This document shows positions 21,562 through 44,791 of a stretch of DNA of 64,000 nucleotides, in pieces. The DNA is taken from contig JADQBQ010000019.1 in assembly GCA_016278505.1 (NCBI GenBank), positions 5,098 to 69,097 on the forward strand, written 5' to 3'. Origin of the DNA: Clostridiales bacterium (GTDB lineage Bacteria > Bacillota > Desulfotomaculia > Desulfotomaculales > VENG01). The first letter of the stretch is position 1; each line of letters opens with the position of its first letter. The position numbers were made by a program, and so were the translations under genes. The notes below the pieces were generated by a model. The model saw only the letters and a list, made by a program, of their open reading frames with translations. It ran no database searches and was not told the DNA's origin.

Positions 21562-23472
21562 TTATTGATTGGTTAGGTCTAATTCCTGCAGCTTATCCGG
21601 CAGCGGACAGCCTGTTTCTTGATCCCACCCGCGGGCTTTGTAATACTCCTTCAGCACTTCTGCAACTTTTTCCCGGTCCAGGGTTTTGCCTGAAGATGAA
21701 GGTTCATTGTAAAAGCGGTCCGGGAAACGGGAGTCTTCCGGCTTTTCTCCGTGACGGCTATTAAAAAGCTTCTGTAGATTCCAGGTGCGTTCTCCTGCCT
21801 TGATGATTTCTTCCGGGCTGATATGTATGCCGGTAAGGGCGGCATACATTTCCGAGATCAGGGTTGGTCCTACCGTATGCAGTACCGGCGGGCGAATGCA
21901 GAGGCCAACAGCATTGTACACGGATATTAAGTCTTCCGACCATTTGCTCATTTGGGGTATGTCCACGTCCCCGGTTTTGGGGTCGAAAACTCTTTCTTTC
22001 AGTGCGTCAGGCATGTCCAGGGTTTGTAACATTTCATCGGGAAACGAAAATTTTTCGGTGCGGTACGGGCGGGGATTATCATTATGGCGTAGATTTTCTA
22101 CCGGGTTTCTTGTACGCAGGTGGTCACCGCCCCTTATATTTGTGATGTATCCCAATGTCCATGTAGACCAGCGGGCGCGCGGGTCAATAAGCATACATTC
22201 CAAACCCTTAACGTGAACACAATATTTCTCACTACCTGCGATTTTTTCCGCTGCCCGTTTGGTGCCTTCAGCTAAGATATCGCCAAAACCTTTCCTGTGA
22301 GCAATATTTTCAAGAAGCTTAATAGTAGATTTCTGGTTTCCCCAGTTGAGCTTGAAACCCAGTTCTGATTCGTCAATGATCGCCTTTTGGTAAAGTTCCA
22401 TGCTAAAGGCAACAGCCCCGGCGGCGGAAACCATATCTAGGCCCAAGCGCTGGCAAACTTCTGTAAGCTTAGCCACTGCAGGCAGGTTGTCGATATCACA
22501 GCCGGCGCCGAAAGCAATTACCGGTGTTACTTCCATATCTTTAAGCTGCAGGTCGGCATAAGGACCGTCTTTTATCTCCACCCAGTGTGCACAGGCTATG
22601 GGACATGCCATACAGGCCACGCCCCGCTTAGTGTAGTGATGAAGTTGTTTCCGGGTGCGGGTACTTTCCCAACCTTCAATGGTACCGGTTTGGTAGTTGC
22701 GACCCGGTAGGATACTATGTTCCTGGTAGGGAATGGTAACCAGCATGGTACCGTATTTGCTAAAAGGCTTATAGAAGGGCGAATCCATTATGGCCTGGCG
22801 GGTTTTGTTAACAGCCCGCAGAAATTCATTCTTGTGGGCTACTCTGACAGCACCGGTACCCTTTACCGCGATAGCCTTTAAGTTTTTAGAGCCCATCACT
22901 GCACCCAGCCCGGTGCGGGCCCATGCGTCGTAAGGCCCGTTTTCAATGCTGGCGTAGCGAACCATATTTTCACCGGCCTGGCCGATACAGGCTACTTGCG
23001 CTTCTGCGTTCTGTTTACTGCGTATGGCGCGAATGGTTTCCCAGGCGTCCAAGCCCCAAATATTTTGCGCAGAAATGATTTTTACTTTACTGTCGTTTAT
23101 CTGTAGGTATACGGGTTTTTCGGACTTTCCTTTCAAAACAATGACATCAAATCCGGCAAACTTTAACTCTCCGCCCCAATAATTACCTGAACTTGAGGTA
23201 CCGAATAAACCGGTGGCAGGCGAAAGGGAGGAAACTTCCGTTCTACATGCCGTGGGAATATTAGTCCCACAGAAAACCCCTGTGCTGAAGATAAGCACAT
23301 TTTCCGGGCCAAGGGGGTCGGCGCCGGGTGGAATATTATCATATAGAATACGTGCGTTGAAGCCCGTACCGCTTAAATACAGGGTCTGTAAACTTCTATC
23401 CAAAAGCTGTTCAGTTATGGTATGATCGGTTAGGTTAATAATTAGCATTTTCCCTGCGTACCCGTAAGCCAT
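21562..23472 (-). CDS. aor: aldehyde:ferredoxin oxidoreductase (tungstopterin AOR family)
   Basis: The N-terminus MAYGYAGKMLIINLTD and overall sequence are typical of the AOR family. The ATG at 23472 overlaps the ferredoxin stop (TAATG), with GGAGGT 8 nt upstream. Confidence 0.9.
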   Translation of the reverse strand: MAYGYAGKMLIINLTDHTITEQLLDRSLQTLYLSGTGFNARILYDNIPPGADPLGPENVLIFSTGVFCGTNIPTACRTEVSSLSPATGLFGTSSSGNYWGGELKFAGFDVIVLKGKSEKPVYLQINDSKVKIISAQNIWGLDAWETIRAIRSKQNAEAQVACIGQAGENMVRYASIENGPYDAWARTGLGAVMGSKNLKAIAVKGTGAVRVAHKNEFLRAVNKTRQAIMDSPFYKPFSKYGTMLVTIPYQEHSILPGRNYQTGTIEGWESTRTRKQLHHYTKRGVACMACPIACAHWVEIKDGPYADLQLKDMEVTPVIAFGAGCDIDNLPAVAKLTEVCQRLGLDMVSAAGAVAFSMELYQKAIIDESELGFKLNWGNQKSTIKLLENIAHRKGFGDILAEGTKRAAEKIAGSEKYCVHVKGLECMLIDPRARWSTWTLGYITNIRGGDHLRTRNPVENLRHNDNPRPYRTEKFSFPDEMLQTLDMPDALKERVFDPKTGDVDIPQMSKWSEDLISVYNAVGLCIRPPVLHTVGPTLISEMYAALTGIHISPEEIIKAGERTWNLQKLFNSRHGEKPEDSRFPDRFYNEPSSSGKTLDREKVAEVLKEYYKARGWDQETGCPLPDKLQELDLTNQ

Positions 23473-23738
23473 TAATTGGCACCTCCTTCGGTGTGACCGG
23501 TATTGTCCGGTACATTCATACTGCGTATTGCCCCTGAGGGGCATGCTTTTGCACACTGGTGACAACTTTTGCAGCTAGACAAGAAGGATATCAGAAAAAT
23601 ACCCTCAAAGTCATATTTAGTGATTCTGATATGAGATTTAGCCAAATCAAATTCCCCCTGGTTAACGAGGGAACACGTGAGGGCACATGTGGAACAGCCA
23701 ATACATTTTGCGGGGGTGATGATTAGTTCTTTTTTCAT
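23472..23738 (-). CDS. 4Fe-4S dicluster ferredoxin
   Basis: CIGCSTCALTC and CKSCHQCAKACP cluster motifs. Translationally coupled to aor. Confidence 0.8.
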   Translation of the reverse strand: MKKELIITPAKCIGCSTCALTCSLVNQGEFDLAKSHIRITKYDFEGIFLISFLSSCKSCHQCAKACPSGAIRSMNVPDNTGHTEGGAN

Positions 23739-28647: not shown

Positions 28648-28796
28648 GTCATTTGCCAGACAAAAAAGATAGATTAAATTTGATAATCTTATTCATAAGT
28701 TAAAGTTAATCTTAAGGTTTAAATACAGCACGGTAGTTATTATGGTCTGTATGGTTGCGGTATCAAGTGCTGCCTTATAAAAAGAGGAGGGGAATC

Positions 28797-29603
28797 ATGC
28801 TACTAAATGTGAAGGAACTGGCACAAAAGGATAGCTTGAGCTATCAAGAAATGCAGGACGCTCTAGAATACTTGTTTAGGTTGGATTATCATCCCGTCGC
28901 CATTAAGTTTTTCTTTGACCAGACTGAGTATGACAATTACCAAGCGGAAAAGGTGCCGGGTCCAAAAATGACTTATTGTCAAATTGCATTAGCATCACGT
29001 TTTAATAGCTTTACCGTTAAAGCTTCTGCAGATAACTTGTTATGTGGCAATGCCAAGACAGTTTTTGGTTTTCGGGAAGCTGACGATGCAGAGGTTGACG
29101 GGCATGTTAAGTATACAGCTGATTGGGATGCGGCTAAGAAATGTTTACTCAGTAAACCTAAACTGCCACTGGGAGAATTGAAAGGTTTTGCCACTGCGCC
29201 TCTGGGAAAAGCTGATTTTGAACCCAGTGTGGTATTTTTTGTAGTTAACCCACTACAGGCCTATCATATTGCCAATGATTACATCGGGGCTTTCGGAGAG
29301 CACCCCCTTACCTATAAACATACAGTTAATTCCGCGGTTTGCGCCGGCAGCGTTGTTTCTTACCTTGATAATGCCATAAATATGACTACCATGTGCGCAG
29401 GTAGTTTTACCTCCGGGAAAACAGAAAAAGGTGAGGTTAATCTGTTTATCCCAGGCAGCAAAATAGGTGGGGTAGCTGCACAGCTGGTTCACCGCACCAA
29501 TAAATACGGTGGTCCTTCCATGTTGGGGACACCAGGACAGGAATTCCCGGGCATGGATGCTTGTAAAAAATGTCCCATGATCAAGTTTAAGGATGCCAAA
29601 TAA
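28797..29603 (+). CDS. DUF169 domain-containing protein
   Basis: The YHPVAIKFF region is typical of DUF169 (COG2043). ATG at 28797 with GAGGAGGGG upstream. Confidence 0.7.
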   Translation: MLLNVKELAQKDSLSYQEMQDALEYLFRLDYHPVAIKFFFDQTEYDNYQAEKVPGPKMTYCQIALASRFNSFTVKASADNLLCGNAKTVFGFREADDAEVDGHVKYTADWDAAKKCLLSKPKLPLGELKGFATAPLGKADFEPSVVFFVVNPLQAYHIANDYIGAFGEHPLTYKHTVNSAVCAGSVVSYLDNAINMTTMCAGSFTSGKTEKGEVNLFIPGSKIGGVAAQLVHRTNKYGGPSMLGTPGQEFPGMDACKKCPMIKFKDAK

Positions 29604-29747
29604 CAACGGGGTTACGCCCCAGAGTTTATAAAAAAAGCAATGATTATTTTCAGGGAGGTGATAAGGTAGGTCGGCTTTTATTGTTGGAGGAGAGTTTGGT
29701 TGTTCAGGAGTGTAGGTAAATTCTAAAAGAAAGAGGGGAACTTATCC

Positions 29748-30743
29748 ATGGATTTTATTATTTCAGGGATTCATGCTAATCCAATTTGGATTGTATTTTG
29801 GGGGATTATAACCGGATATGTTTTTTCTACTGTCGGCGCGGCTGGTGCCTGCCTAACCCTTATCGGACAGGTCACCCTGTTTAAGATTGATAAAATAATG
29901 CCCCAGCATTTAATGTCTCAGGGCATGGATCAGGCAGCGGCCAAGGCAACCACGAAAAACACTATGAAGGTTCATAACTTGATGGCTGTTATTCTGTCGC
30001 CCATCATTGCGGTGCCCAAGTACTTTAAGGAAAAACGTGTGGCTATTCCGCTGGCATTGTGTGTAGCATCCGGTGTTGTATTCGGTGCCCTGATAGGGCC
30101 ACAAATTCCCATGTCATTATCAGCTTATAAATTCTGGTTTGGGATTATTACCTTTGTCATCGGTCTTCGTCTTGCTTATGAAACTACAAATGTGTATCGT
30201 CAGAAGAAGCAAAAGCTAACCGAGGTTTCCAAGAACTTTGAAGCAAGGGTTAAGGAAATGAAACAGACAAAAAATTGGGATGCTTTAGCTACAGAAGGCT
30301 TCAAAGTTGACAACTTTTCTATTAAAGAGTTGACTTTTACCTTCTGGGGACAGCAATTTACTATTAGCCCTGTGGTAGCTGCTCTCGGCGGTTTTTGTAT
30401 CGCCATAATTGCTTCCATGTTCGGTCTGGGTGGCGGCTTTATGCTGGTTCCTTACCTGGCATCGGTATTCGTATTGCCTATGTTCATGGTCTCGGGTACT
30501 TCCATCTTGATTGTGTTAGTTAACTCTGTGGTTGCCATCGGCAGTTATTTGGCTAAGGGTGCCACTCCCGACTTTATGTACATTGGATTTTTCTTGGCCG
30601 GTGTAGCCGGTGGATCTTACCTTGGTCCAATATTCTCCAAGTACTATAAGGAAAAATACCTGCGTTGGCTCTTGGCGGCAGTGCTTCTCTTCTACGGCCT
30701 GCGTTTTATGGGCGTTTGGAAAGCTCTGGGCCTGGGTATTTAA
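29748..30743 (+). CDS. TauE/SafE-family (DUF81) anion exporter
   Basis: Two 4-TM halves with Gly-rich first helices (GAAGACLTLIG, FGLGGGFMLVP). Confidence 0.75.
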   Translation: MDFIISGIHANPIWIVFWGIITGYVFSTVGAAGACLTLIGQVTLFKIDKIMPQHLMSQGMDQAAAKATTKNTMKVHNLMAVILSPIIAVPKYFKEKRVAIPLALCVASGVVFGALIGPQIPMSLSAYKFWFGIITFVIGLRLAYETTNVYRQKKQKLTEVSKNFEARVKEMKQTKNWDALATEGFKVDNFSIKELTFTFWGQQFTISPVVAALGGFCIAIIASMFGLGGGFMLVPYLASVFVLPMFMVSGTSILIVLVNSVVAIGSYLAKGATPDFMYIGFFLAGVAGGSYLGPIFSKYYKEKYLRWLLAAVLLFYGLRFMGVWKALGLGI

Positions 30744-31296: not shown

Positions 31297-32541
31297 TTAA
31301 ATAAACGAAAACAAAACTACAGATATTGCAGCGCCGGCGAGAATCAACCAGAGAGTGTCGAGTTTTGTATAGCGTTGGGTGGCAACAGCCCCCAGGGCCA
31401 TTAGCCATGTTGGTATATCCACCAGGATGTCGTTAGTTAATCTAATAACCACGGCCCACAAAGTTCCGATAAATGCAGCTACTACTCCGCGTACCACCAA
31501 GCGGATACTGGGTACCTGCCCGGCCCGGCGGTATAAATCGGCGGTAAGGTTGATAATGCAAAAAGTGGGAATGTAAATATTTATTGTGGCCACCAGTGCC
31601 CCTGTCAAACCTGCTGCTTTGTAACCGACAAAAGTGGCAATTTTGGTTAATGGGCCCGGGGTTACTAAACTCAAGGCCAGAGCTGTGGTGAATTGCTGCG
31701 TGGTGATCCATTGATAATGATTGACGGCTTCTTTCTGGATAAAGGGCAACATGGCGTACCCGCTGCCAAATACCAGGCCGCCCAATTCCATGAACGTAGT
31801 GCCCAAGTTCGTAAAAACTTTTGTGGTGCTGATTAAGGCAATATCTGCAGCCACCATGGCGGCAACCAGGCCCATAGTGTAACCCATCATTTTCCTGTCA
31901 ATTGGCTTAAATTGAGTTTTTTTAGTGTTCTGTTCTTTGGTGAGCCCGGCCATTTTTTCTGCCCACCAGGGAAAGCGCCGGCTTAATATAACAAAGGTGA
32001 TGCTGAACAAGGTAGCCAATAGGAGAATCCAGTAGATACTTAAATTCAGTCGGTAAATTAATACAAAACCTCCAATGGCCAGAACCCAATTCTGCTTATT
32101 GGTCACCCCTGATTTCCACAGATTAAGCACAGTGTTGATAACCAGCCCCACCACCAGTGCCCCCAACCCTTTAAATAAGTTGGATACGATAGACAGGTCA
32201 CGGTATTCAGTATAAAGATAAGTAAAAATCACCATAAATACAAATGCCGGTAACAGATAAGCTACAGCGGCGCAGACTGAACCCCAGAAGCCGCGCAGTC
32301 GTTGTCCCAGGTATATCATTAGACTTACCGCGGGTGCACCTGGTAAAATTTGTGAGAAACCAACCCCCTGCAGGTATTCTTCATCAGTAAACCACTTCTT
32401 CTCTTTCACCAGCCAATTTTTTGCTTCCCCCAGAGCGGCCAGACTAAAGGATACAGCCCCAATACGCAAAAAGGTAAGGCAAACTTCCGGCAACGAGGCG
32501 GTTTTATTTATATTGTCCCGGGGAGTTGCTTTTTCTGACAT
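31297..32541 (-). CDS. chrA: chromate transporter ChrA (two CHR domains)
   Basis: LRIGAVSFSLAAL....ILPGAPAVS in the N-half and an equivalent C-half. Size 414 aa. Confidence 0.85.
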   Translation of the reverse strand: MSEKATPRDNINKTASLPEVCLTFLRIGAVSFSLAALGEAKNWLVKEKKWFTDEEYLQGVGFSQILPGAPAVSLMIYLGQRLRGFWGSVCAAVAYLLPAFVFMVIFTYLYTEYRDLSIVSNLFKGLGALVVGLVINTVLNLWKSGVTNKQNWVLAIGGFVLIYRLNLSIYWILLLATLFSITFVILSRRFPWWAEKMAGLTKEQNTKKTQFKPIDRKMMGYTMGLVAAMVAADIALISTTKVFTNLGTTFMELGGLVFGSGYAMLPFIQKEAVNHYQWITTQQFTTALALSLVTPGPLTKIATFVGYKAAGLTGALVATINIYIPTFCIINLTADLYRRAGQVPSIRLVVRGVVAAFIGTLWAVVIRLTNDILVDIPTWLMALGAVATQRYTKLDTLWLILAGAAISVVLFSFI

Positions 32542-32601
32542 AGTGTCCTCTCCTTGGTAATGAGCTTATCTTTACAGGTAAATGTATTCTTATTGAGAAT
32601 C

Positions 32602-32620
32602 TAAGTGCACAGTGCACCTA
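32602..32620. promoter_or_regulatory. near-palindromic operator candidate TAAGTGCAC-A-GTGCACCTA upstream of chrA
   Basis: Lies about 60 nt upstream of the chrA start. Same motif as the perfect palindrome at 43026-43044. Confidence 0.45.
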
Positions 32621-32743
32621 TATAATTTTAAGATATACTATCATTACAATTATATTAAAGCAATACTTTTTCCTACATCAAAAGAGGAATCCTATATAGG
32701 ATTCCTTCTTAACGAGTCAAGACAGAATATAATCCAGGGTGTT

Positions 32744-32887
32744 TCAGTCAGGGCTGGACTCAACTTCGTCGTATGATAATTGGGTTACCCTGGTGAACTC
32801 TCCCGTCTTTTTTTCCTGACGGGTTGCTTTCTTCTCCAAATAATCATCATCCCCGGGTGCGGCAACTGGCTTTCTTCTTTCTTCCAT
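32744..32887 (-). CDS. small acidic/basic ORF (47 aa)
   Basis: Not in the ORF track. ATG with AAGGGG upstream. Sequence MEERRKPVAAPGDDDYLEKKATRQEKKTGEFTRVTQLSYDEVESSPD. Confidence 0.3.
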   Translation of the reverse strand: MEERRKPVAAPGDDDYLEKKATRQEKKTGEFTRVTQLSYDEVESSPD

Positions 32888-36841: not shown

Positions 36842-39262
36842 ATGAAACGTACAGCAATCCATGCAATAAAACAAATAATTAACAGTAGCAACGCTGTGAG
36901 CCGACCTCTTTTAGTGCTGGTACTGGCATTCACTGTTGGTATTTTGGTGTCCGGTCTTTTAGAGCCCGGGCTCTTTTTGATTTTCGGATTATCCTTTCTA
37001 GTTTTTCTGGTGGCCATTTTTAGTTTCTTTGTTGGTCGCAGAGGCACCGGGCTGTTAGTAGCCTTGTTGTCGTTCTTGTTAGGTTTATTGACAGGCGGTT
37101 TAGCCTGGCAGGGAATAGATCAAAGTATACTTAAATATTGTGATCACTACGTAATTATAGAAGGGACAGTGAGACAGGCTCCCGAATACCGTCTTGACTC
37201 CATAGAGTACGTCCTGGATGTTGAAACAGTGCGGGTAAACGGTAAGATGTATGCAAATTCCGGGGGCGTGCTGGTAAGGGTAAAGGGAAAGCAAGGAAAG
37301 TTTGGTTATGGTGACAGGCTTCGGGTGGAGGGTGTTTTATACAGGCCTTCCACGCCTGGAAACCCAGGTTCTTTCAATTATCGCAAATACCTTGCCCGGC
37401 AAAATATTGTGGCTTTAACCACAGTAAAGCCTGACCATGTGCAAAGGCTTGCTAAGGGGGCACCGGGATTGCTTGGTGCTGCCGCAGTAATGCGGGAAAA
37501 AATGATGCAAATTTCCAGGGATACTCTTTCACCCACCCACGCGGCCATGTTGAACGGAATGATGTTTGGTTCCAGGGGAGAAATCCCGCATGATTTGCAG
37601 CAAGCATTTTCCGAATCCGGGCTGGCCCATGTACTTTGCGTCAGTGGCTTACATGTAGGCATAGTGCTGGGGGGGCTGCTAATACTGTTGAGGATGATGG
37701 GTACTCCCGTTTCCTGGCTGCCCGGCGTGATCACACCGATTCTATTGTTTTATGGGGCTATGACAGGGTTTGGCCCGGCGGTATTACGGGCCACCGTAAT
37801 GGCACTGCTGCTTTTATGGGGGCACCGCCTGGGGAGAGAAAGAGATTGGCCCACCACGCTGGCGCTGGCAGCCTTAATCATCCTGGCCTTAAATCCTCTG
37901 CAGCTTTATGAAGTAGGGTTTCAGCTTTCCTTTGCCGCCACATGGGGCATTTTATATCTAGGGCCCTGGCTGCAAGAAAAAATGGAAAATTGGCGACTGC
38001 CCGGATGGACAAAATCCACTCTCCAGGTTACAGTCTCTGCCCAGCTGGGTACGTTACCCATAGTAATACAATACTTTAATCTGGTGTCCGCCGCTTCCAT
38101 AATAAGCAACCTGGTGGCATTGCCACTGACTGGTATTATCCTTTTAATGGGGTTTGCGGCAGGGGGAATAGGGCTTATCATACCCTTGGCCGCGCAGGTT
38201 ATTAATGCGGGAACTGAAATTTTATTAAGCATCTATGAATGGCTGGTTTTGGTCATCAGAAATATCCCGGGTGCTTCACATTACACTGCCCCCTGGCCCT
38301 GGTGGGTGATAGTTGCCTGGTGTGCGGGGCTGATCACCGTGGTGGAATGGTGCCGGGTGCGGCCCTTAATACCTATTTCGGGCTCTCGTAAGTCCTGGGC
38401 GGCAATAAGTGTTACCTGCCTGGTGGCCCTGGCGATTTGGCAGGGCAGTAGTGGAAATAATTTGGAAGTTCACTTTATTGATGTGGGGCAGGGAGACAGT
38501 ATACTGGTACGCCTGCCCGGTGGGAAGGACATGCTGGTGGATACCGGGGGCTGGTTCGGGGATTTTGACGGTGAACCGGGTGTGGGAGATTACGTGGTGG
38601 TTCCTTATTTGCGGAGGCTGGGTATAAATGAGCTTGATGCCGTGGTTTTATCCCACTTTCATGAAGATCATGCCGGTGGATTAAGGGCGGTTATGAAGGC
38701 TGTTAATGTGGCTGTGCTGGTTACTCCCCCATTGGAGGAGGAATTAGATGCCAACACAGGTGTACAAGAAATTCTTGCCGTGGCCAGCCAAAAAAATATC
38801 CCTGTCCGTTTTGGCAATTACGGTGACCAACTGTTCCCGGACAGCCCGGTTAAAATCTCTTTTTTGGGCCCTTTACAAGAACCCTTTGACGGGACCAGGT
38901 CCGACCTTAATAATAATTCCCTGGTATTGTTTATGGATTACAAGAATACCGAATTCTTATTGTCCGGTGATATAGAAGAGGAAATGCAGGAGAAACTGGT
39001 AGAGCGGGGAGCGCTACAGCCAGTCGAGGTACTAAAAGTGGCCCATCACGGAAGCAGGTATGCCTCAGCTGCCTTTATGGAACAGGTGGAGCCTATGGTT
39101 GCAGTCATTTCAGTGGGGGAGGGGAACAGGTTTAATTTACCCAGCTCGGAAATAATTTCCCAATTAGAAGATATGCAAGTCACAATATATCGTACTGACC
39201 GGGACGGCGCGGTGATAGTAAGTTCCAACGGTAAAGGACTTAATATAAAAACCGGCCGCTAA
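36842..39262 (+). CDS. comEC: DNA internalization competence protein ComEC/Rec2
   Basis: DUF4131-like N-terminus, a polytopic competence domain and a C-terminal metallo-beta-lactamase domain (LSHFHEDHAGG). The start is uncertain (36842 ATG vs 36761 GTG). Confidence 0.9.
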   Translation: MKRTAIHAIKQIINSSNAVSRPLLVLVLAFTVGILVSGLLEPGLFLIFGLSFLVFLVAIFSFFVGRRGTGLLVALLSFLLGLLTGGLAWQGIDQSILKYCDHYVIIEGTVRQAPEYRLDSIEYVLDVETVRVNGKMYANSGGVLVRVKGKQGKFGYGDRLRVEGVLYRPSTPGNPGSFNYRKYLARQNIVALTTVKPDHVQRLAKGAPGLLGAAAVMREKMMQISRDTLSPTHAAMLNGMMFGSRGEIPHDLQQAFSESGLAHVLCVSGLHVGIVLGGLLILLRMMGTPVSWLPGVITPILLFYGAMTGFGPAVLRATVMALLLLWGHRLGRERDWPTTLALAALIILALNPLQLYEVGFQLSFAATWGILYLGPWLQEKMENWRLPGWTKSTLQVTVSAQLGTLPIVIQYFNLVSAASIISNLVALPLTGIILLMGFAAGGIGLIIPLAAQVINAGTEILLSIYEWLVLVIRNIPGASHYTAPWPWWVIVAWCAGLITVVEWCRVRPLIPISGSRKSWAAISVTCLVALAIWQGSSGNNLEVHFIDVGQGDSILVRLPGGKDMLVDTGGWFGDFDGEPGVGDYVVVPYLRRLGINELDAVVLSHFHEDHAGGLRAVMKAVNVAVLVTPPLEEELDANTGVQEILAVASQKNIPVRFGNYGDQLFPDSPVKISFLGPLQEPFDGTRSDLNNNSLVLFMDYKNTEFLLSGDIEEEMQEKLVERGALQPVEVLKVAHHGSRYASAAFMEQVEPMVAVISVGEGNRFNLPSSEIISQLEDMQVTIYRTDRDGAVIVSSNGKGLNIKTGR

Positions 39263-39319
39263 AGGTCTAAGAAGTGGGAAAAAACACTTATTTCTTTTCA
39301 TAAGCGGTGTTGCTCTCTC

Positions 39320-40477
39320 TTATACAGCTATTATTTTGCGTTTAAGCAGTTCTTGCAGCGCGATGCCGGCTAAGAAACCTGCTCCCATATTCCACATCCC
39401 AAATCCAGCCGTAACGAGAAGGATATAAAAGTCTTCTTTCTCTCTACCCACATCTCTGGCACTTACCGCTAGCTCAAGACCGGCAAATAAAAGAATTACA
39501 CCCAGTATGCACTCGGGAAAAATTTTAAAGATAAGGGCTACTGAGTTGCTAAAGAAAAGGGCCAGTATAAGTAATATGCAGCCTAATATTACAAGGGATC
39601 CGCCTGTTCTAGCCCCGAACCTGACGTGACCGGCCATACCGCCCGCGCCGTGACACATGGGGGTGCCGCCGAAAATAGGTGATACCAGGTTCATTATGCC
39701 CTGCGAAACTGCAATTTTCTTTTCGGTCACCGGCCTGTCCGGAAAGAGCCTATTATTTTCAGCAGTGATGGCAATAACGGCGTTCCCCAGTGTGAGTGGT
39801 ATTTGAGGTATACCGAGTATTAGTGTCCCTTTGACAAAGTCCTGCCATGTTACACTGGCCACGGCCAGTTCAGGCACTCTAAAACCTATTTTAATTTGTG
39901 CCAGCTGACCAAATAGAGAAGGATCACGGAAAATGGCTACTGCTACGCCCACAACTAGAAGAACAAACATGGCCGGAACCTTATTACCCTTGAGCAAGAA
40001 AAATGTAAGCAGCAAGGCAAATATGGCAATTGCCAAATCACTCTGCATCTTTTGTATACCGTCTTTAACGAACAAAAGGCCCAGGCCAAGTACAATACCT
40101 CTTATCACCGGCTTGGTTGCTATTTTGGAAATGTAATTCAGCATTCCCGTTAACCCCATAATAAGCCAGAAAAAACCGGTGAAAATTCCTGCCCCTAACA
40201 CCATACTTGGTGTCAATGCCCCGGCACTGGTAATGGCTGCACCGCCTATTGCCTTCATGGGTTGGATGGGCAACGGAGTCTTATAATACGAGCCCCCGAT
40301 AATCATTAAGATACCAAACATAAGCAACACCCCGAGCGGGTCCATCTTCATTACCGTTATGTAGCCAACTATAAAAGGTATAAGGGTGCCCAGGTCACCA
40401 AAGGCACCGGCCCACTCCATGCGGTCAAATTTGTTTTTAAGCTTTGTTGGTGCGGTTGGTTCCGTTTGAGTTTTCAT
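39320..40477 (-). CDS. MOT1/SulP-like putative molybdate/sulfate transporter
   Basis: The N-terminal MEWAGAFGDLGTLIPF motif and polytopic body resemble the MFS_MOT1-type family. Assignment is from memory. Confidence 0.65.
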   Translation of the reverse strand: MKTQTEPTAPTKLKNKFDRMEWAGAFGDLGTLIPFIVGYITVMKMDPLGVLLMFGILMIIGGSYYKTPLPIQPMKAIGGAAITSAGALTPSMVLGAGIFTGFFWLIMGLTGMLNYISKIATKPVIRGIVLGLGLLFVKDGIQKMQSDLAIAIFALLLTFFLLKGNKVPAMFVLLVVGVAVAIFRDPSLFGQLAQIKIGFRVPELAVASVTWQDFVKGTLILGIPQIPLTLGNAVIAITAENNRLFPDRPVTEKKIAVSQGIMNLVSPIFGGTPMCHGAGGMAGHVRFGARTGGSLVILGCILLILALFFSNSVALIFKIFPECILGVILLFAGLELAVSARDVGREKEDFYILLVTAGFGMWNMGAGFLAGIALQELLKRKIIAV

Positions 40478-40481
40478 TCTA

Positions 40482-41267
40482 TCACCTCAACTTATATGTT
40501 GCTGAAATAAACTTTTTCTGCAACTCTAGACCATAGGGGATTACTTTATCCGGTTTTATTTTAAACCTTTTGCCATCATCCAGATCGATAAAAAAGTTTA
40601 TTAGCTTGTTAATTACAGGATCACTAGTGCCAAGGGTTAAAAGCTTTTTCGTAAATTTGTCATCAACAGGCTTAGTCTTAAAGATTCTGCAGCAATGGGA
40701 GTTCTCATAATATGGTCTTATCCTGTCCAGATTTTTCTCAAGGGCATCAATAAGTTCCTCCAAAACAGAACCGGTGGTTTCAACAACAACCGATGCCTGA
40801 ACTAAAAAGCAATAAATAAACCTTTTTATTTCAAATCCGCTTACTTTCAGAGGGCTGTTGTGCCGATATAAATTTATTTCCGCTAAAGATTGTTTTTTGT
40901 CACCTGAAATAATTGTATGATCAGTTAGCGTAATACCAAGTAATGCCAGTTGCCACTTTAAAAATTCGGTGGAAACAATATCATTATCTGACGGGATAAT
41001 TTCTCCGTGCCATGGAACTTGGGGGTGGTTATGAACTACTATGGCTTCTTGAAAGCATATTTTTGTTTGGCTTAGCCACTGAATTAAAACATTTAAAGGT
41101 GGCATAATAGCCCATGTTTCCTGGCAGTTATCACCACATAAAACTTTTAATTTGTTACTTCCACTGCCGAATACCAGTACTGCCTGTTCATATTTTTTTG
41201 TGGAAATGGCTTTTATTTCTTCGATACTAAGAATATCCACTGCTATGCAGGAAGTAGGTAGGGACAT
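40482..41267 (-). CDS. RadC-like JAB/MPN domain protein with an unknown 120-aa C-terminal domain
   Basis: HNHP....PSDND motif (H79, H81, S93, D96). ATG at 41267 with AGGAGGGG 8 nt upstream, preferred over the listed start at 41306. Confidence 0.65.
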   Translation of the reverse strand: MSLPTSCIAVDILSIEEIKAISTKKYEQAVLVFGSGSNKLKVLCGDNCQETWAIMPPLNVLIQWLSQTKICFQEAIVVHNHPQVPWHGEIIPSDNDIVSTEFLKWQLALLGITLTDHTIISGDKKQSLAEINLYRHNSPLKVSGFEIKRFIYCFLVQASVVVETTGSVLEELIDALEKNLDRIRPYYENSHCCRIFKTKPVDDKFTKKLLTLGTSDPVINKLINFFIDLDDGKRFKIKPDKVIPYGLELQKKFISATYKLR

Positions 41268-41283
41268 TAAAGAACCCCTCCTG

Positions 41284-41715
41284 TCAATTTGACATATGCA
41301 GCTCATCTTCCATGGCTTGAATAAATCTTTTTAATAAATAAGATCTAATGTTAAATAATATTAAGCCCAGGGCTACCATAATACACACAAAGTAGAACAG
41401 TGGAATTTGAATTCCCAGTACGGTGGGGATCCCGTCAATAGTACGGAGGACTTCATTTTTTTCTTCTGTCCAGGCTATCACTTTAGGTTCCTCATCCACG
41501 TCATTTGTCTGCGCCGGAATCATTTCAACTGCTAAGTCGCCAAGTGCTGGATTGTAAAGAACGTCAAAAAAAATAATATTAAAAATAACCTGGTAGGACA
41601 ATATTCCACTGATAATAAAGACCAGTAAGAGGTGCCAGGAGATCTTCTTTTCGTAGTCATTGATTTTTCTTGTTAATTCTTTCTCGTTTAGTTTTGAGTT
41701 AGCCATTTTAACCAC
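41284..41715 (-). CDS. hypothetical 2-TM membrane protein
   Basis: Two hydrophobic helices flank an acidic loop of about 60 aa. No family recognised. Confidence 0.5.
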   Translation of the reverse strand: MVKMANSKLNEKELTRKINDYEKKISWHLLLVFIISGILSYQVIFNIIFFDVLYNPALGDLAVEMIPAQTNDVDEEPKVIAWTEEKNEVLRTIDGIPTVLGIQIPLFYFVCIMVALGLILFNIRSYLLKRFIQAMEDELHMSN

Positions 41716-41719
41716 GCCC

Positions 41720-42541
41720 CTAGCAAGGAATTAAACCATTCTGCTCCAGTATTTCTTCTCCCCGGGGACCGGTCAATATATTAATAAACTCCTGGGCTAG
41801 TTCCTTTTGATTCGATTTTTTTGGAATGGCGATGGCAAACTCAATGGGAGTACCGGTGATTTCGGTATCCAGGCCGGGATAACTTCCGTCAACTACAACT
41901 TTGGCCCGGGCATAATAATCAGCCAGTCGCGGGTCGCTCAAATTAATCTCAGGGGGGAATACTATGTGCTTTAGGTTTAATTGTTTGGCCACTGAAAGAT
42001 ATTCAAAGCCGTAATCAACCTGGCCCTGTAGAAGGGCACAAGCCAAATCAAAGGATTTGGGGTAGACATTACTCCAACTATCTTCCAATGCTTTAAACAG
42101 GCCCGGCCGGTTATAAAATTTCTCTGCCAGTTGCCACAACATCAATGTTCTGTACCCGCAGGGATCACGGTGGTGGTCTGAACGACCGTATTTTATCTGG
42201 CTATTATTTAATAAAACATCCATCCAGTTGTCCTTAGTAATAATTTCATTATGTGTGGAAAACTCATCAAAGGCCAAAACCATTTGGTCAGTGGCAAAAA
42301 CAAAGGAGGTATCTACAAAGCGGGGAATTAGAATATCTTCAAATACCTTATAATCCGCCAGCGCAATTAAATCCACTATCTTTCCCCCCGCCACCGCCCG
42401 GGCACAGGCCCTTGAACCTGCGTAATCAAGTTCTACTTTTAAATCAGGGTATCTTTTCCATAATATGTGAATGCACTCTTTTATGGGTTTACGCAGCGCC
42501 CCGGCATGAAGTACTTTAAAACAATTAGGATTATTTTTCAT
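41720..42541 (-). CDS. WtpA/ModA-like molybdate/tungstate-binding protein lacking a signal peptide
   Basis: VLHAGALRKP resembles the AGSL motif region of WtpA-type periplasmic binding proteins. The N-terminus has no hydrophobic leader or lipobox. Confidence 0.65.
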   Translation of the reverse strand: MKNNPNCFKVLHAGALRKPIKECIHILWKRYPDLKVELDYAGSRACARAVAGGKIVDLIALADYKVFEDILIPRFVDTSFVFATDQMVLAFDEFSTHNEIITKDNWMDVLLNNSQIKYGRSDHHRDPCGYRTLMLWQLAEKFYNRPGLFKALEDSWSNVYPKSFDLACALLQGQVDYGFEYLSVAKQLNLKHIVFPPEINLSDPRLADYYARAKVVVDGSYPGLDTEITGTPIEFAIAIPKKSNQKELAQEFINILTGPRGEEILEQNGLIPC

Positions 42542-42923
42542 CAGCGCTTCCCCCTTGCTCTTTTTGTTCTCGGTATAGACTAAGAAACTGTTCGACTTGA
42601 AGTTTTTGCTTCTCTATCTTTGCAGCAGTTTCGTCCAAAACGTTGATACCTTTTTCAGTTATTTCATATAACCTGCGGGCAGGGCCCGATTCCGAGATCT
42701 GCCAGCTGGATGTTAAAAGCCGGTTCTTCTCCATCCGTCTCAAGTTCCTGTATATGGTGCCCGGCTCTACTTCTTCCGTAGATTGCAATTTATTATAGTT
42801 TTGAATTAATTCATAGCCGTGCGATGGCTTTATATAAACAAATAAAAGTAAGCCGGGCTGAATCAATTTATCCAGGGTAATATCCTCTCCGTTTTTTATC
42901 GCCATTATAAACCTCCGTATCAA
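42531..42923 (-). CDS. PadR-family transcriptional regulator
   Basis: PSHGYELIQ....PGTIYRNLRRMEKNRLL..S....GPARRLYEITEKG. Confidence 0.85.
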   Translation of the reverse strand: MIRRFIMAIKNGEDITLDKLIQPGLLLFVYIKPSHGYELIQNYNKLQSTEEVEPGTIYRNLRRMEKNRLLTSSWQISESGPARRLYEITEKGINVLDETAAKIEKQKLQVEQFLSLYREQKEQGGSADEK

Positions 42924-43025
42924 GCGATTTCACAGAAATAATCAATATCACAACTTTGTTCTGAAAATCTGCATCTTTATGCCATTGTCTCCATTGAAAA
43001 TTGTCGAAGTAGTGCATCATAGTTT

Positions 43026-43044
43026 TAAGTGCACCGTGCACTTA
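43026..43044. promoter_or_regulatory. perfect 19-nt palindrome TAAGTGCAC-C-GTGCACTTA (operator candidate)
   Basis: Lies in the divergent spacer between the two PadR genes. A related site is upstream of chrA (32602-32620). Confidence 0.5.
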
Positions 43045-43106
43045 GGTGATTGAAAATATATTAACACTATAATTTTATTTACACAATACATTTTTCCGAA
43101 TTTACC

Positions 43107-43135
43107 TTGCCATAAATATGAACTAATGATAATAT
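43107..43135 (+). promoter_or_regulatory. sigma-A-type promoter candidate with extended -10
   Basis: TTGCCA, a 17-nt spacer ending in TGA, then TAATAT. Confidence 0.5.
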
Positions 43136-43186
43136 AGTTCGCAGATAACTCTATAGGCATATTGCACATAAGGGAGGTTTCCATAA

Positions 43187-43570
43187 GTGTGCCAAGACCA
43201 AGGTTCTCATCATGGAAGTAGTTGCAGCTGTTCTGGTATGCCAATGAGACGCTTTCTGCAGCCCTGTCTTTTACTGCTGCTTCACCGCCGGTCAACCCAC
43301 GGGTACGATTTGATTCAAAATCTTGGAGAGTTCGGTTTTTCTTCCGGTGAAACAGACCCGGGCACTGTATACAGGCACCTGCGTAAGATGGAAGAGGAAA
43401 AATTAGTAACTTCCGCCTGGGATACAGATCAAGGTGGGCCGGCTAAAAGGCTGTACCAAATAACCGGTGAGGGTGAGGAAATTTTACACGCCTGGGCCGT
43501 TACCCTGAATGGGAATAAACAGAGGATAGAAGACTTTTTGGTTAAATATAAAACCCAATTTCCGGGATAG
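43187..43570 (+). CDS. PadR-family regulator with a Cys/His-rich N-terminal extension
   Basis: PadR core (STHGYDLIQ..DPGTVYRHLRKMEEEKLV..GPAKRLYQITGEG) preceded by CQDQGSHHGSSCSCSG. GTG start with AAGGGAGG upstream. Confidence 0.8.
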   Translation: MCQDQGSHHGSSCSCSGMPMRRFLQPCLLLLLHRRSTHGYDLIQNLGEFGFSSGETDPGTVYRHLRKMEEEKLVTSAWDTDQGGPAKRLYQITGEGEEILHAWAVTLNGNKQRIEDFLVKYKTQFPG

Positions 43571-43609: not shown

Positions 43610-44086
43610 ATGTTTAATATCATCCTTTTTGTATCGGCTGCCATTGGACTTATAATATCCAATCAGAAAGACAAAGTAAAAACTAAGCAGGCCCTCAAAA
43701 AAGCCGTAAATTCCTTTATCAATTTATTGCCCAGCTTACTGGGGATCATTGGCCTCATCGGTTTAATGTTGGCGCTGGTGCCCCGGGAATTAATTGCGGG
43801 GTTTTTCGGCGATAACAGCCCGGCAGGTATTGCCGTCATATCGGCCATCGGTTCCATTACACTGCTGCCGGCATTTGTTGCTTTTCCCCTGGCCTCATCG
43901 TTCCTTGATGCCGGGGCCAGTATTGTTGCCGTGGCCTGTTTTATCACCACTTTGCTGATGGTGGGGGTCATAACCGCTCCCATGGAAATAGAGTATTTCG
44001 GGAAGAGATTTACCCTTTGGCGTAATTTATCCGCACTGGTATTGGCAGTTATCATCGGTCCCTTGATTGGAGTGATGGTGCGTTGA
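43610..44086 (+). CDS. split DUF318/ArsP-type permease, subunit 1
   Basis: A polytopic 158-aa protein overlapping the next gene by 4 nt. Resembles half of the 352-aa permease at 49771-50826. Confidence 0.6.
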   Translation: MFNIILFVSAAIGLIISNQKDKVKTKQALKKAVNSFINLLPSLLGIIGLIGLMLALVPRELIAGFFGDNSPAGIAVISAIGSITLLPAFVAFPLASSFLDAGASIVAVACFITTLLMVGVITAPMEIEYFGKRFTLWRNLSALVLAVIIGPLIGVMVR

Positions 44087-44619
44087 AGAGTAAAATTAAA
44101 AAGTATAATCTTTTTTTCCTGGTTGTTTTAGTTGATCTTATTTTGTGGTTCTACTGGCCGGATAAGGGAACAACGGCAGTTATAAGTACCGGTGATTACC
44201 TGGTTGAGATGCTGCTGTTCATTCCACCTATTTTTATATTAATCGGTCTATTAGATGTTTGGGTACCCAGAGAAATTGTGGAAAAGAACGTAGGTCCCGA
44301 GTCAGGGGTAAAGGGTGTTGTTATATCCATTTTGGTGGCCACTGCTGCAGCCGGCCCCCTTTACGCGGGCTTCCCGGTAGCCTATACCCTGATGAAAAAA
44401 GGCTGCCGCATGGCAAATGTGGTGATCTTTCTCGGTACCTGGGCAACAATAAAAGTTCCCATGCTGATGATGGAAATAAAATTTTTGGGAATGGAATTTG
44501 CTGCAGCCAGGTTGCTATTAACTCTCCCGGCAATTATCCTTTCCGGTTACCTGGTAGAAAGATTATTGGCCGGTGCAGAGAAAGCCGGTGAACCTAAAGC
44601 TAACAAACTTACCGGTTAA
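44083..44619 (+). CDS. split DUF318/ArsP-type permease, subunit 2
   Basis: A polytopic 178-aa protein with the AAAGPLYAGFPVAYTLMKKG region typical of this permease family. Confidence 0.65.
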   Translation: MKSKIKKYNLFFLVVLVDLILWFYWPDKGTTAVISTGDYLVEMLLFIPPIFILIGLLDVWVPREIVEKNVGPESGVKGVVISILVATAAAGPLYAGFPVAYTLMKKGCRMANVVIFLGTWATIKVPMLMMEIKFLGMEFAAARLLLTLPAIILSGYLVERLLAGAEKAGEPKANKLTG

Positions 44620-44662
44620 AAGCACTTTTATCCATAACTGTTTTTCGAAAGGGGGGAGAAGG

Positions 44663-44791
44663 ATGTGTAATTGTAACTGTGACCAGCCCGATAAGTTGAA
44701 AGGGAAAAAGCCTGGTGAGTGCACCACGGAGCAAGTCAAGGAATGTCACGGGGATGAAAAGAATCATCCCTGCACTAAGGAAAAAGAATAA
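44663..44791 (+). CDS. tiny Cys-rich protein (42 aa)
   Basis: MCNCNCDQPDKLKGKKPGECTTEQVKECHGDEKNHPCTKEKE. ATG with GGGGGGAGAAGG upstream. 6 Cys and 2 His. Confidence 0.5.
   Translation: MCNCNCDQPDKLKGKKPGECTTEQVKECHGDEKNHPCTKEKE

Follow-up and report, generated by a model that had tools for sequence, protein, structure and literature searches.

What does a bacterium do with an operon that joins a PadR-family repressor, a molybdate/tungstate-type binding protein lacking an export signal, and a secondary anion carrier? The operon lies within a stretch of 64,000 nucleotides from a Clostridiales bacterium of the class Desulfotomaculia, referred to here as the window, and a preliminary description had taken its five genes for a non-ABC module of oxyanion uptake or sensing. 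Surveys of Mo/W transport, in the portions available, describe three ABC systems only (PMC6147048). The anatomy of the locus, the pairing, the fusions, the operator with its second site, the carrier swapping, and the dsrA link presented below were all computed. We propose a cytoplasmic Mo/W-type oxyanion sensor that acts with a repressor to control secondary oxyanion carriers, probably for protective export, and we give this reading about an even chance.

Architecture of the operon

The operon comprises five co-directional minus-strand ORFs:

42531..42905, minus strand: padR1, PadR-family winged-helix repressor, 124 aa (PF03551, 67 bits); ORF 42531-42923, likely start ATG 42905 with GGAGG ahead of it
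41720..42541, minus strand: signal-less WtpA-type binding protein, proposed cytoplasmic oxyanion sensor, 273 aa; ORF 41720-42541
41284..41706, minus strand: 2-TM protein, 140 aa, two hydrophobic segments, orphan and lineage-specific insert; ORF 41284-41715, likely start ATG 41706
40482..41267, minus strand: RadC-like JAB protein, 261 aa, lineage-specific insert; ORF 40482-41306, likely start ATG 41267 with AGGAGGGG ahead of it
39320..40477, minus strand: MOT1-family secondary carrier, 385 aa, no STAS domain (PF16983); ORF 39320-40477

With the likely starts, the junctions measure -11, +13, +16, and +4 nt, the first being the 11-nt overlap of padR1 with the binding-protein gene. The tight layout originally described was thus reproduced: we detected no terminator-like site within the operon (minus strand, 39150-43300), and the operon holds no ABC permease or ATPase gene. 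Past the 3' end of the MOT1 gene, the only terminator-like element is a U run preceded by a weak hairpin (-9.3 kcal/mol, z -2.3). Profile scores also bore out the assigned families (PadR, WtpA-type, JAB, MOT1). PadR1 reached 67.2 bits against PF03551 (gathering score 27), with the conserved PadR motif HGYELIQ...YRxLRRME...GPxRRxY. The terminal carrier, the sole MOT1 copy in its genome, matched PF16983 with 174.3 bits (gathering score 30) in two stretches corresponding to repeats. A tungstopterin-type AOR had been reported at 21562-23472; an AOR-like ORF is indeed present, extending over 21562-23565, and its 242 bits (E 1e-71) against the NCBIfam AOR model lie under the model cut-off.

The composition as a whole is not a conserved unit. 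No genus but that of the window shows the full five-gene order, which is kept in the sister species G161; in one other genus, TauE replaces MOT1 in an otherwise equal order. The JAB and 2-TM genes form a rare, lineage-specific insert with a G+C content of 0.35-0.38, versus 0.45-0.48. The JAB protein matched PF04002 with 41.2 bits (cut-off 22.1) over profile positions 66-118 only; its E..HxH..S..D motif is intact, and none of the 13 sequences compared departs from E27, H79, H81, S93, and D96. Its predicted model (pLDDT 86) aligned with RadC 2qlc across ~120 residues (E 3e-4) and includes a helical C-terminal domain of unrecognised fold. The gene occurs in this operon in three of the 12 genomes holding it, and alone in unrelated contexts in the other nine; it is missing from 75 of 76 related loci. 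The 2-TM protein matched no Pfam or NCBIfam family, and in a search of 1.84 billion representatives only three relatives reached E <= 1e-10; in one locus (L009) its gene is split into two ORF pieces. Contrary to the original listing of both proteins as module parts, they are passengers or local accessories outside the core.

A WtpA-type binding protein without an export signal

The binding protein belongs to SBP_bac_11 in Pfam (114 bits; domains PF13531 and PF01547). Its best NCBIfam matches were the WtpA models NF003196 and TIGR03730, both below cut-off (227 vs 355 and 206 vs 242.75 bits, respectively), and a profile search retrieved A. fulgidus ModA/WtpA with an E value of 1.7e-71 and 30-34% identity. 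The predicted structure (pLDDT 90.6) has the WtpA/ModA class fold: in a Foldseek comparison, it superposed on tungstate-bound WtpA (3cfx, 3cij) with TM 0.88-0.89 and rmsd 2.0-2.7 Å, and sulfate-binding proteins first appeared at rank 33 (TM 0.61-0.68). Sequence and fold therefore agree that the protein is of the Mo/W rather than the sulfate type.

We found neither a signal peptide nor a lipobox. The chain begins seven residues ahead of strand 1, at the first start codon past the upstream stop, with no start codon further upstream, and its alignment to the WtpA profile begins at position 30 of 338. All aligned relatives share this start point, while those linked to ABC genes have a Cys-containing hydrophobic leader. 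These observations point to a cytoplasmic protein, as had been suggested.

The AG(A/S)L-type region noted earlier is present as HAGAL; all 77 leaderless forms have this Ala, and 4/4 ABC-linked forms have Ser instead (HAGSL). Asp126 and position 165 are, we assume, the two metal-binding carboxylates. The former is kept in 75/77 leaderless forms; the latter is Asp in 74/77 and Glu in ABC-linked forms. In the A. fulgidus structure of Hollenstein et al. 2009, two carboxylates reportedly complete the octahedral coordination of W/Mo. Further changes relative to WtpA are Asn85 to Asp and x-Tyr-Gly at 234-236 to Glu-Phe-Ala. Since the pocket is not identical to that of WtpA, another ligand could be bound; we give Mo/W somewhat better than an even chance.

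Pairing with PadR

We fetched 80 related loci, 76 of which encode the leaderless binding protein. PadR and the binding protein are adjacent in every one of these: the PadR gene lies directly 5' in 74, and the two form one ORF in the others (L053, L054; 417 aa), with both Pfam domains. A third natural fusion, P0017, has 397 aa and shares 71% identity with the binding protein described here; the fusions join PadR to SBP_bac_11. WtpB/WtpC-type ABC permease and ATPase genes were absent from 76/76 leaderless loci. ABC partner genes were found at the Chloroflexota loci L074, L080, and L077, and at L079 only an ATPase cluster was seen. No Moco biosynthesis gene recurred in the neighbourhoods examined. 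The suspected functional tie to PadR is thus strengthened by constant adjacency, natural fusions, and the conserved operator described below. Because the export signal is lost and the PadR pairing constant, the protein probably serves inside the cell as the oxyanion sensor through which several unrelated anion carriers are switched in Gram-positive sulfate reducers.

Promoter and operators

The following elements were located:

43058..43086, minus strand: predicted padR1 operon promoter, -35 TTGTGT 43086-43081, 17-nt spacer, TG 43066-43065, extended -10 TAATAT 43063-43058
43025..43045, no strand: putative operator 1, 21-bp palindrome CTAAGTGCAC-G-GTGCACTTAA, 0 mismatches
42924..43010, minus strand: 5' leader, frameshifted remnant of a small HMA-like gene
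32601..32621, no strand: putative operator 2, ATAGGTGCAC-T-GTGCACTTAG, 1 mismatch to operator 1
31297..32541, minus strand: chrA, CHR-family carrier, 414 aa (TIGR00937, 252.3 bits vs cut-off 171.7)

The same -35/TG/-10 arrangement aligned in 9/13 close loci; a consensus scan missed the promoter because its -35 element matches at only 3/6 bases. Operator 1, which is perfect in G161 too, lies directly 3' of the -10 element, ~120 nt ahead of the padR1 ATG. The operator consensus CTANNTGCANNNTGNNNNTAG, which was derived from 27 of the same 76 loci, occurs with <=1 mismatch in the 420 nt preceding the first gene of the module in 53/76 loci, and ahead of a downstream TauE gene in two further loci; the remaining 21 have no match at <=1 mismatch. 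Altogether, 59 sites were counted in 871 kb, versus ~3.8 expected (<=1 mismatch). The leader gene is intact in four loci (L003, L004, L005, and L009, by DNA alignment; the L009 copy was translated); it matched no Pfam family, and its sequence pattern suggests an HMA-like fold.

Operator 2 is situated 60-80 nt upstream of chrA, 10 kb from the operon in the same window, behind a look-alike promoter (-35 TTGCTT 32663-32658, TG 32643-32642, -10 TAGTAT 32640-32635). The sister species G161 has a perfect operator copy at the same place before its ChrA ortholog. Furthermore, chrA is closely related (E 2.5e-121) to the ChrA sitting within the operon of L057. We therefore predict that chrA is the second member of the PadR1 regulon. 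The core unit consists of PadR and the signal-less WtpA-type protein under their own conserved promoter and 21-bp palindromic operator; this pair persists in 76/76 related loci.

Carriers and host distribution

The carrier beside the pair is TauE/TSUP in 52 loci, CHR/ChrA in 12, and MOT1 in five, the last occupying the same slot at L008, L030, L038, L048, and L049. A same-strand TauE, ChrA, or MOT1 gene lies within 1.3 kb in 68/76 loci, and also in L009, behind the JAB insert. The carrier type changes several times across the sensor tree, and MOT1 is one of three interchangeable carrier families. That the module relies on secondary carriers in place of an ABC importer, as first noticed for this operon, is supported. 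At L039, a SulP-STAS gene lies downstream of the pair. PF16983 genes were noted in sulfate reducers, without tests, in the available portion of Marietou et al. 2018 (PMC5840216), and the portions of the literature searched yielded no characterised bacterial MOT1 member.

The pair was found in 68 of the 162 genomes of the class. dsrA is present in 65 of these 68, the three without it being 70-85% complete, versus 43 of the 94 genomes without the pair. ModB occurs in 46/68 genomes with the pair versus 70/94 without. The pair thus tracks dsrA, not ModB, although shared ancestry confounds the dsrA link, both features being missing from whole families. Family f19, which consists of non-dsrA relatives, has ModB in 34/36 genomes and the pair in 0/36; since it keeps ModB without the pair, the module does not follow Mo demand. 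A true modABC set is convergent with and adjoins the pair at L015 and L016. In the genome studied here and its sister, no ModB was found at E <= 1e-45; the former has a Tup-like ABC system only, at two places. The initial uptake reading is weakened by this distribution.

Proposed mechanism and alternative readings

We propose that the conserved pair works as a cytoplasmic oxyanion switch in two parts. PadR1 would bind the 21-bp palindrome just past the -10 element, spanning the predicted transcription start, and there repress its own operon and the separate chrA gene. The co-translated WtpA-type protein would be the ligand-sensing half. When free cytoplasmic tungstate or molybdate rises, this protein would bind the oxyanion, close around it, and alter the grip of PadR on DNA, most likely causing its release. 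The carriers would then be made, namely MOT1 and ChrA here and TauE or ChrA in other genomes, and most likely expel the oxyanion. Such expulsion would keep sulfate analogues from poisoning the ATP sulfurylase of sulfate reducers. As for transport direction taken by itself, export has roughly a half chance and import perhaps one in three. The import activity of those MOT1 proteins that have been studied, and of one TauE homolog, speaks against the export reading.

The strongest alternative, which we nonetheless consider unlikely, is scavenging import: a ModE-like pair would repress when loaded with Mo/W, and under scarcity MOT1, TauE, or ChrA would import Mo/W for cofactor synthesis. In plants, algae, and fungi, MOT1 takes up molybdate with high affinity, and it is treated as eukaryote-only, according to the available portions of recent surveys (PMC6147048, PMC13144720), one of which counts 278 Mo-using bacteria without a known transporter (Peng et al. 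2018, PMC6147048). The lack of ModB in the genome studied here and its sister would suit this reading. However, ModB accompanies the pair in two-thirds of the pair-bearing genomes, f19 combines widespread ModB with complete absence of the pair, and characterised CHR and TauE members are exporters, going by their NCBIfam and Pfam names.

A sulfur-oxyanion switch is less probable still. Here, the sensor would respond to sulfate, thiosulfate, or sulfite, and the pair would tune the respective carriers for dissimilatory sulfur metabolism. Its near confinement to dsrA genomes, the SulP-STAS gene at L039, and the family-specific pocket changes are compatible with this. Additionally, partial texts name the TSUP, SulP-like, and CHR families as candidate sulfate carriers of sulfate reducers (PMC5840216) and one TauE homolog as a sulfate importer (PMC11535334). 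Nevertheless, the closest relatives by sequence and fold are WtpA and not sulfate-binding proteins, modABC adjoins the pair at two loci, and the two presumed pocket carboxylates are kept. As is understood from sulfate-binding proteins, such carboxylates should repel sulfate, whose coordination cannot expand.

We rate slightly lower, as improbable, a poison-gated shut-off in which the carriers are promiscuous sulfate importers that PadR represses once the sensor is loaded with Mo/W, limiting entry of the toxic analogue. This accommodates the WtpA-type pocket, the dsrA link, and the sulfate-tied carrier families by inverting both the regulatory sign and the transport direction. But sensor, repressor, and carrier are co-transcribed under the same operator, and shut-off would therefore halt sensor synthesis too.

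Some other bacteria store Mo on cytoplasmic binding proteins, and the binding protein might likewise only store the oxyanion or pass it to cofactor synthesis while PadR regulates alone, its operon rising and falling together with the carriers; the three fusions, the strict 76/76 pairing, and the lack of recurring Moco biosynthesis genes in the neighbourhoods examined make this very improbable. Finally, an obligate five-part machine, using JAB and 2-TM, for example, for proteolytic PadR release at the membrane, would fit the tight spacing, the missing internal terminators, the intact JAB motif, and the gene order of the sister species, but is scarcely credible given the rarity of JAB in related loci, its mostly solitary occurrence elsewhere, the orphan and once split 2-TM gene, and the low G+C of the insert.

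Significance

To suppress sulfate reducers selectively, both microbiology and the control of souring and corrosion rely on molybdate as the standard inhibitor. Differences in sensitivity could trace back to carriers under sensor control, which ~40% of Desulfotomaculia genomes encode, and the module points to bacterial secondary Mo/W carriers. Tentatively, and with well under an even chance, it may be the first dedicated bacterial molybdate/tungstate export and homeostasis regulon, with TSUP/CHR/MOT1 carriers under a WtpA-derived sensor acting via PadR. In that case, Gram-positive sulfate reducers would carry their own protection against the inhibitor classically used on them, bacterial MOT1 would gain a first function, and TauE and ChrA would be assigned a new class of substrate. 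The module lends itself directly to EMSA, ITC, and reporter assays through its operator, its regulon of two sites, and its natural fusions.

Comparison with known systems

The carrier of this operon resembles eukaryotic MOT1 in its Pfam MFS_MOT1 membership (174 bits) and two repeats, but is bacterial. The ChrA and TauE carriers belong to the CHR efflux and TauE/SafE (TSUP) families above curated cut-offs. What sets them apart here is their position under a WtpA-type sensor, the absence of a ChrB regulator, and a substrate that is presumably Mo/W.

PadR-family repressors of efflux and detoxification genes, such as LmrR and PadR, are small, autoregulated winged-helix proteins encoded with the transporter they control. 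The present system shares the palindromic operator overlapping the promoter and the repressor gene beside a transporter gene. To our knowledge, known PadR proteins bind ligand themselves, whereas the ligand-binding part here is likely a separate or C-terminally fused binding protein.

WtpA of the WtpABC importer (P. furiosus; A. fulgidus ModA/WtpA, PDB 2onk, 3cij) has the same fold and shares the DPCGYR, GS, KSx(D/E), and DYxFxY motifs. The window protein differs in the missing signal peptide, lipobox, and WtpB/WtpC partners, in its scores below both NCBIfam cut-offs, in the Ser-to-Ala change of HAGSL, the Glu-to-Asp change of the presumed second carboxylate, and more family-specific changes, and in the constant PadR partner of the leaderless form.

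TunR of Desulfovibrio (HTH and PBP-like domain) and ModE (HTH and Mop domains) are Mo/W-responsive regulators in which, as proposed here, a cytoplasmic oxyanion-binding module is coupled to a DNA-binding domain governing Mo/W transporter genes; TunR also shares the sulfate-reducer origin and the periplasmic-binding-protein fold. No Mop or PF12727 domain was found on PadR1 (PF03551 only) or the binding protein. In contrast to both regulators, the DNA-binding part here is a PadR winged helix, the sensor would be a full WtpA-derived protein that is usually a separate polypeptide, and the predicted targets are secondary carriers rather than ABC importers. This design, in which an extracytoplasmic binding protein appears to have been brought inside the cell to bind the ligand on behalf of a PadR repressor, would be new.

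Architecture of the operon

Five head-to-tail ORFs on the minus strand make up the operon at 39320-42923, with junctions of -11, +13, +16 and +4 nt once the starts are set behind visible ribosome-binding sites.

42531-42905, minus strand, PadR (padR1; PF03551, 67 bits)
41720-42541, minus strand, binding protein (SBP_bac_11, 114 bits; top NCBIfam matches to WtpA, 227 and 206 bits, both below the curated cut-offs)
41284-41706, minus strand, two-transmembrane (2-TM) protein, no family
40482-41267, minus strand, RadC-type JAB protein (41 bits)
39320-40477, minus strand, permease (MFS_MOT1, 174 bits)

No minus-strand terminator-like site was found within the operon; past the MOT1 gene, only a weak hairpin trailed by a run of U is present. 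The tight same-strand spacing and the lack of internal terminators noted in the preliminary description were thus both confirmed. Rfam gave zero matches over the window, and hence no Moco-type riboswitch was found.

Conservation of the PadR-binding protein pair

A one-genome-per-species scan yielded 354 relatives, and 80 loci were kept. Four of these, all from Chloroflexota, encode longer proteins (315-351 aa), with lipoprotein-type leaders in L074 and L079; an ABC permease and ATPase adjoin the gene in L074, L077 and L080, and only an ATPase cluster was seen in L079. These four loci are ordinary WtpABC systems. The remaining 76 encode the leaderless form. PadR lies directly upstream in 74 of the 76, often overlapping, and in the other two (L053 and L054) a single 417-aa ORF carries both Pfam domains. 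Protein search yielded a third PadR-binding protein fusion, differing from these in length (P0017, 397 aa). A search for longer homologs returned only two uninformative proteins (503 and 582 aa), the known PadR fusions falling within the length range of the near homologs. In the tree, 77 leaderless proteins group together, separate from the four ABC-linked ones. The five genes had been described as one unit; the neighbourhood survey upheld the pair, present in 76/76 loci, as the conserved unit and not the five genes, the carrier being swapped and the JAB and 2-TM genes being local.

In 68/76 loci the pair has a same-strand secondary anion carrier no further than 1.3 kb away, the nearest being TauE/SafE in 51, CHR/ChrA in 12 and MOT1 in 5. 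TauE lies beyond a JAB insert in L009, MOT1 and ChrA occur together in L038, and L039 has an additional SulP-STAS gene. Seven loci are carrier-less, two of which reach a contig end. Several switches of carrier type were observed on the tree of the binding protein, implying that the pair is the fixed part and the carrier a plug-in.

The JAB and 2-TM genes form a local insert. Only 15 proteins in 5.8 billion make up the JAB family, with homologs in 12 of the 162 genomes of the class; the gene lies within a PadR operon in only three of the 12 (this genome, its sister species and D. geothermicus) and stands alone amid unrelated genes in the other nine. Its catalytic motif is intact and its first ~120 residues match RadC; no match was found for the helical C-terminal half. 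A search of 1.84 billion representatives at E <= 1e-10 gave three relatives of the 2-TM protein, whose gene is split in L009. The G+C content of this stretch (40500-41500) is below that of its flanks, at 0.35-0.38 versus 0.45-0.48 in the MOT1 gene, consistent with later insertion. PADLOC and PHROGs gave no meaningful match for either protein, and no defence or phage family fits, leaving a defence-cassette reading without support.

Several loci also carry small ORFs beside the pair. An 88-104 aa ORF with a heavy-metal-associated-fold-like pattern precedes PadR in L003, L004, L005 and L009 (5326-5616 in L009), and in six Desulfosporosinus-type loci a 73-aa ORF with such a pattern separates TauE from PadR. 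In L013, L014, L018 and L076, TauE is followed by a gene for a true HMA protein with CxxC. Coordinates of these small ORFs include 3186-3407 in L046 and 3626-3877 in L076. In the window, the operon leader (42924-43010) holds only a frameshifted remnant of the HMA-like ORF.

Ancestry and pocket of the binding protein

The N-terminus of the binding protein extends only seven residues ahead of the first strand, its alignment to the WtpA profile starts at position 30 of 338, and no further in-frame start codon is present upstream. As predicted from the ORF, there is no room for a signal peptide, in line with the initial description. A profile of 20 relatives matched A. fulgidus ModA/WtpA at E 1.7e-71, versus 5e-8 or worse for true ModA proteins. 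The structural model (pLDDT 90.6) superimposed onto tungstate-bound archaeal WtpA structures with TM 0.88-0.89, and sulfate-binding proteins appeared only from rank 33 (TM 0.61-0.68). Profile and predicted fold both identify the binding protein as derived from WtpA and not as a sulfate binder, which bears out its original Mo/W-type assignment.

Pocket positions were matched by spacing and motif to the ModA-type set Ser, Ser, Ala, Val, Tyr, as given in PMC7604516. Ser43, Arg44, Cys128 and Tyr181 are common to the leaderless and ABC-linked forms; other positions are compared below.

Pocket residues in 77 leaderless and 4 ABC-linked sequences
Position; leaderless; ABC-linked
Asp126; Asp 75/77; Asp 4/4
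15 (HAGSL loop); Ala 77/77; Ser
85; Asp; Asn
165; Asp 74/77; Glu
234-236; Glu-Phe-Ala; x-Tyr-Gly

An Asp/Glu pair reportedly takes part in octahedral W coordination (work of Hollenstein et al., 2009). The pocket looks WtpA-like yet retuned, and a reduced affinity would fit a cytoplasmic sensor.

Promoter, candidate operator and predicted regulon

When the closest loci were aligned over their upstream regions, they shared a -35 and an extended -10 followed, roughly twelve bases further on, by a palindrome, which in the window reads CTAAGTGCAC-G-GTGCACTTAA (43025-43045). The close-locus alignment was needed, as an exact-palindrome count over upstream regions found no common motif. A related element occupies the same position in 18 Desulfosporosinus-type loci that form a clade of their own. 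With at most one mismatch, the joint consensus CTANNTGCANNNTGNNNNTAG occurs within 420 nt upstream of the first gene of the module (PadR, or TauE where TauE precedes) in 53/76 loci, and in two further loci it precedes a downstream TauE. The 871 kb of locus DNA contains 59 such sites versus ~3.8 expected, the consensus having been derived from 27 of the same loci and the other matches coming from loci outside that set.

In this genome, the strict palindrome occurs at two sites with at most one mismatch (~0.05 expected). One is the padR1 promoter, and the other (32601-32621) follows a similar-looking promoter and precedes a ChrA gene (31297-32541, minus strand) by 60-80 nt. In the sister species, the padR1 promoter and chrA each carry a perfect copy. 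All six sites found in four genomes are at the module or chrA, and a reversed control pattern gave one match across 41 genomes. From these sites, the window regulon is predicted to comprise padR1-sensor-(2TM-JAB)-MOT1 plus chrA.

Sites were counted only at zero or one mismatch. Scanning this genome with up to three mismatches gave a chance-level result (9 versus ~18 expected, 3-6 per Mb), as did a loose 21-mer (11 strand matches versus 17.3 expected). A two-mismatch site on contig C43 is intragenic. Scanning for consensus promoters did not rise above the level of shuffled sequence (15 versus 10.3 +/- 3.7) and missed the conserved promoter.

Several neighbouring features were also recorded. A 47-codon ORF with an inverted repeat after it (32746-32886) lies between a citE-like gene and the chrA promoter. 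A DUF169 gene (28755-29603) precedes a TauE-family gene (29748-30743) that only distantly resembles the TauE of the module (E 2.6e-22), and 28755-30743 showed no operator-like site. Divergent from the operon is a second PadR gene (PadR2, 43187-43570; 38% identical to PadR1), with a related imperfect palindrome immediately ahead (43151-43171). Downstream of PadR2 are an ArsP-type permease split in two genes (43610-44086 and 44083-44619) and a Cys-rich 72-aa ORF (44573-44791). The divergent PadR2 arrangement recurs in L009, L010, L058 and the sister species (G161).

Distribution among hosts

Within the 162 genomes of the class, 72 matches to the leaderless form, spread over 68 genomes, reach 374 bits or more; matches of 243-300 bits have longer open frames and form a distinct group, the exported type. 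Cultured relatives with the pair include Desulfoscipio gibsoniae and Desulfofarcimen acetoxidans. In tallies made by hand from tables, in which kin are not independent, dsrA is present in 65/68 genomes with the pair versus 43/94 others, and ModB (E <= 1e-45) in 46/68 versus 70/94, the latter showing no anticorrelation between ModB and the pair. The three genomes having the pair without dsrA are 70-85% complete. In family f19, ModB was found in 34/36 genomes, dsrA in 1/36 and the pair in 0/36. On these tallies, the pair goes with a dissimilatory sulfur lifestyle rather than with Mo use itself.

This genome encodes a lone TupA-like binding protein on contig C47 (~123.9-124.7 kb; 225 bits versus a cut-off of 400) and a TupB-like permease with an ATPase on contig C52 (~312-313.5 kb); no ModB above the cut-off was found here or in the sister species. 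A true modABC lies convergent with, and directly after, the TauE-PadR-sensor unit in L015 (6831-9198) and L016 (6819-9014), and in G037, G038 and G039 no more than 1.5 kb separates ModB from the pair.

Two other kinds of neighbour were observed. In L034 and L040, genes for AnfO and nitrogenase components are found on the opposite strand, a few hundred bases downstream of the pair; since Mo represses alternative nitrogenases in other organisms, this may exceed chance. Arsenic-resistance-type genes (ArsR, ACR3-like SBF carrier, thioredoxin, ArsP) adjoin the pair in L017, L018, L021, L039 and L069, a neighbourhood that looks like an anion-resistance island.

Proposed function and comparison with known systems

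Based on the strict pairing, the fusions, the translational coupling and the family-wide operator, the best-supported reading of the core is a sensor-repressor pair, which we consider probable. Descent from WtpA, retention of the carboxylates and the nearby mod genes suggest, somewhat less firmly, Mo/W as the likeliest ligand.

Regarding the carriers, we lean towards export of the oxyanion, to which we would give about an even chance. Tungstate and molybdate are toxic sulfate analogues for sulfate reducers, whose distribution the module tracks, and the module coexists with ModABC. Furthermore, CHR and TauE proteins are exporters where studied, and resistance systems typically combine a repressor with a pump in one operon. 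Import by the carriers is judged somewhat less likely; against export, MOT1 is an importer in eukaryotes (PMC6147048, PMC13144720) and one TauE imports sulfate (PMC11535334).

Searches covering PadR or TauE with Mo/W, TunR, tungstate-responsive regulators, prokaryotic MOT1 and Mo/W export found no description of the module in main texts. For molybdate/tungstate export, the papers listed mostly concern plants and other eukaryotes, and none of them deals with a characterised bacterial exporter. No paper was found tying PadR to Mo/W, PadR appearing in the accessible part of PMC2954201 only in a list of neighbouring regulators. MOT1 is treated as eukaryotic in two surveys (PMC6147048, PMC13144720), and PF16983 genes in sulfate reducers were noted by Marietou et al. 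2018 (PMC5840216).
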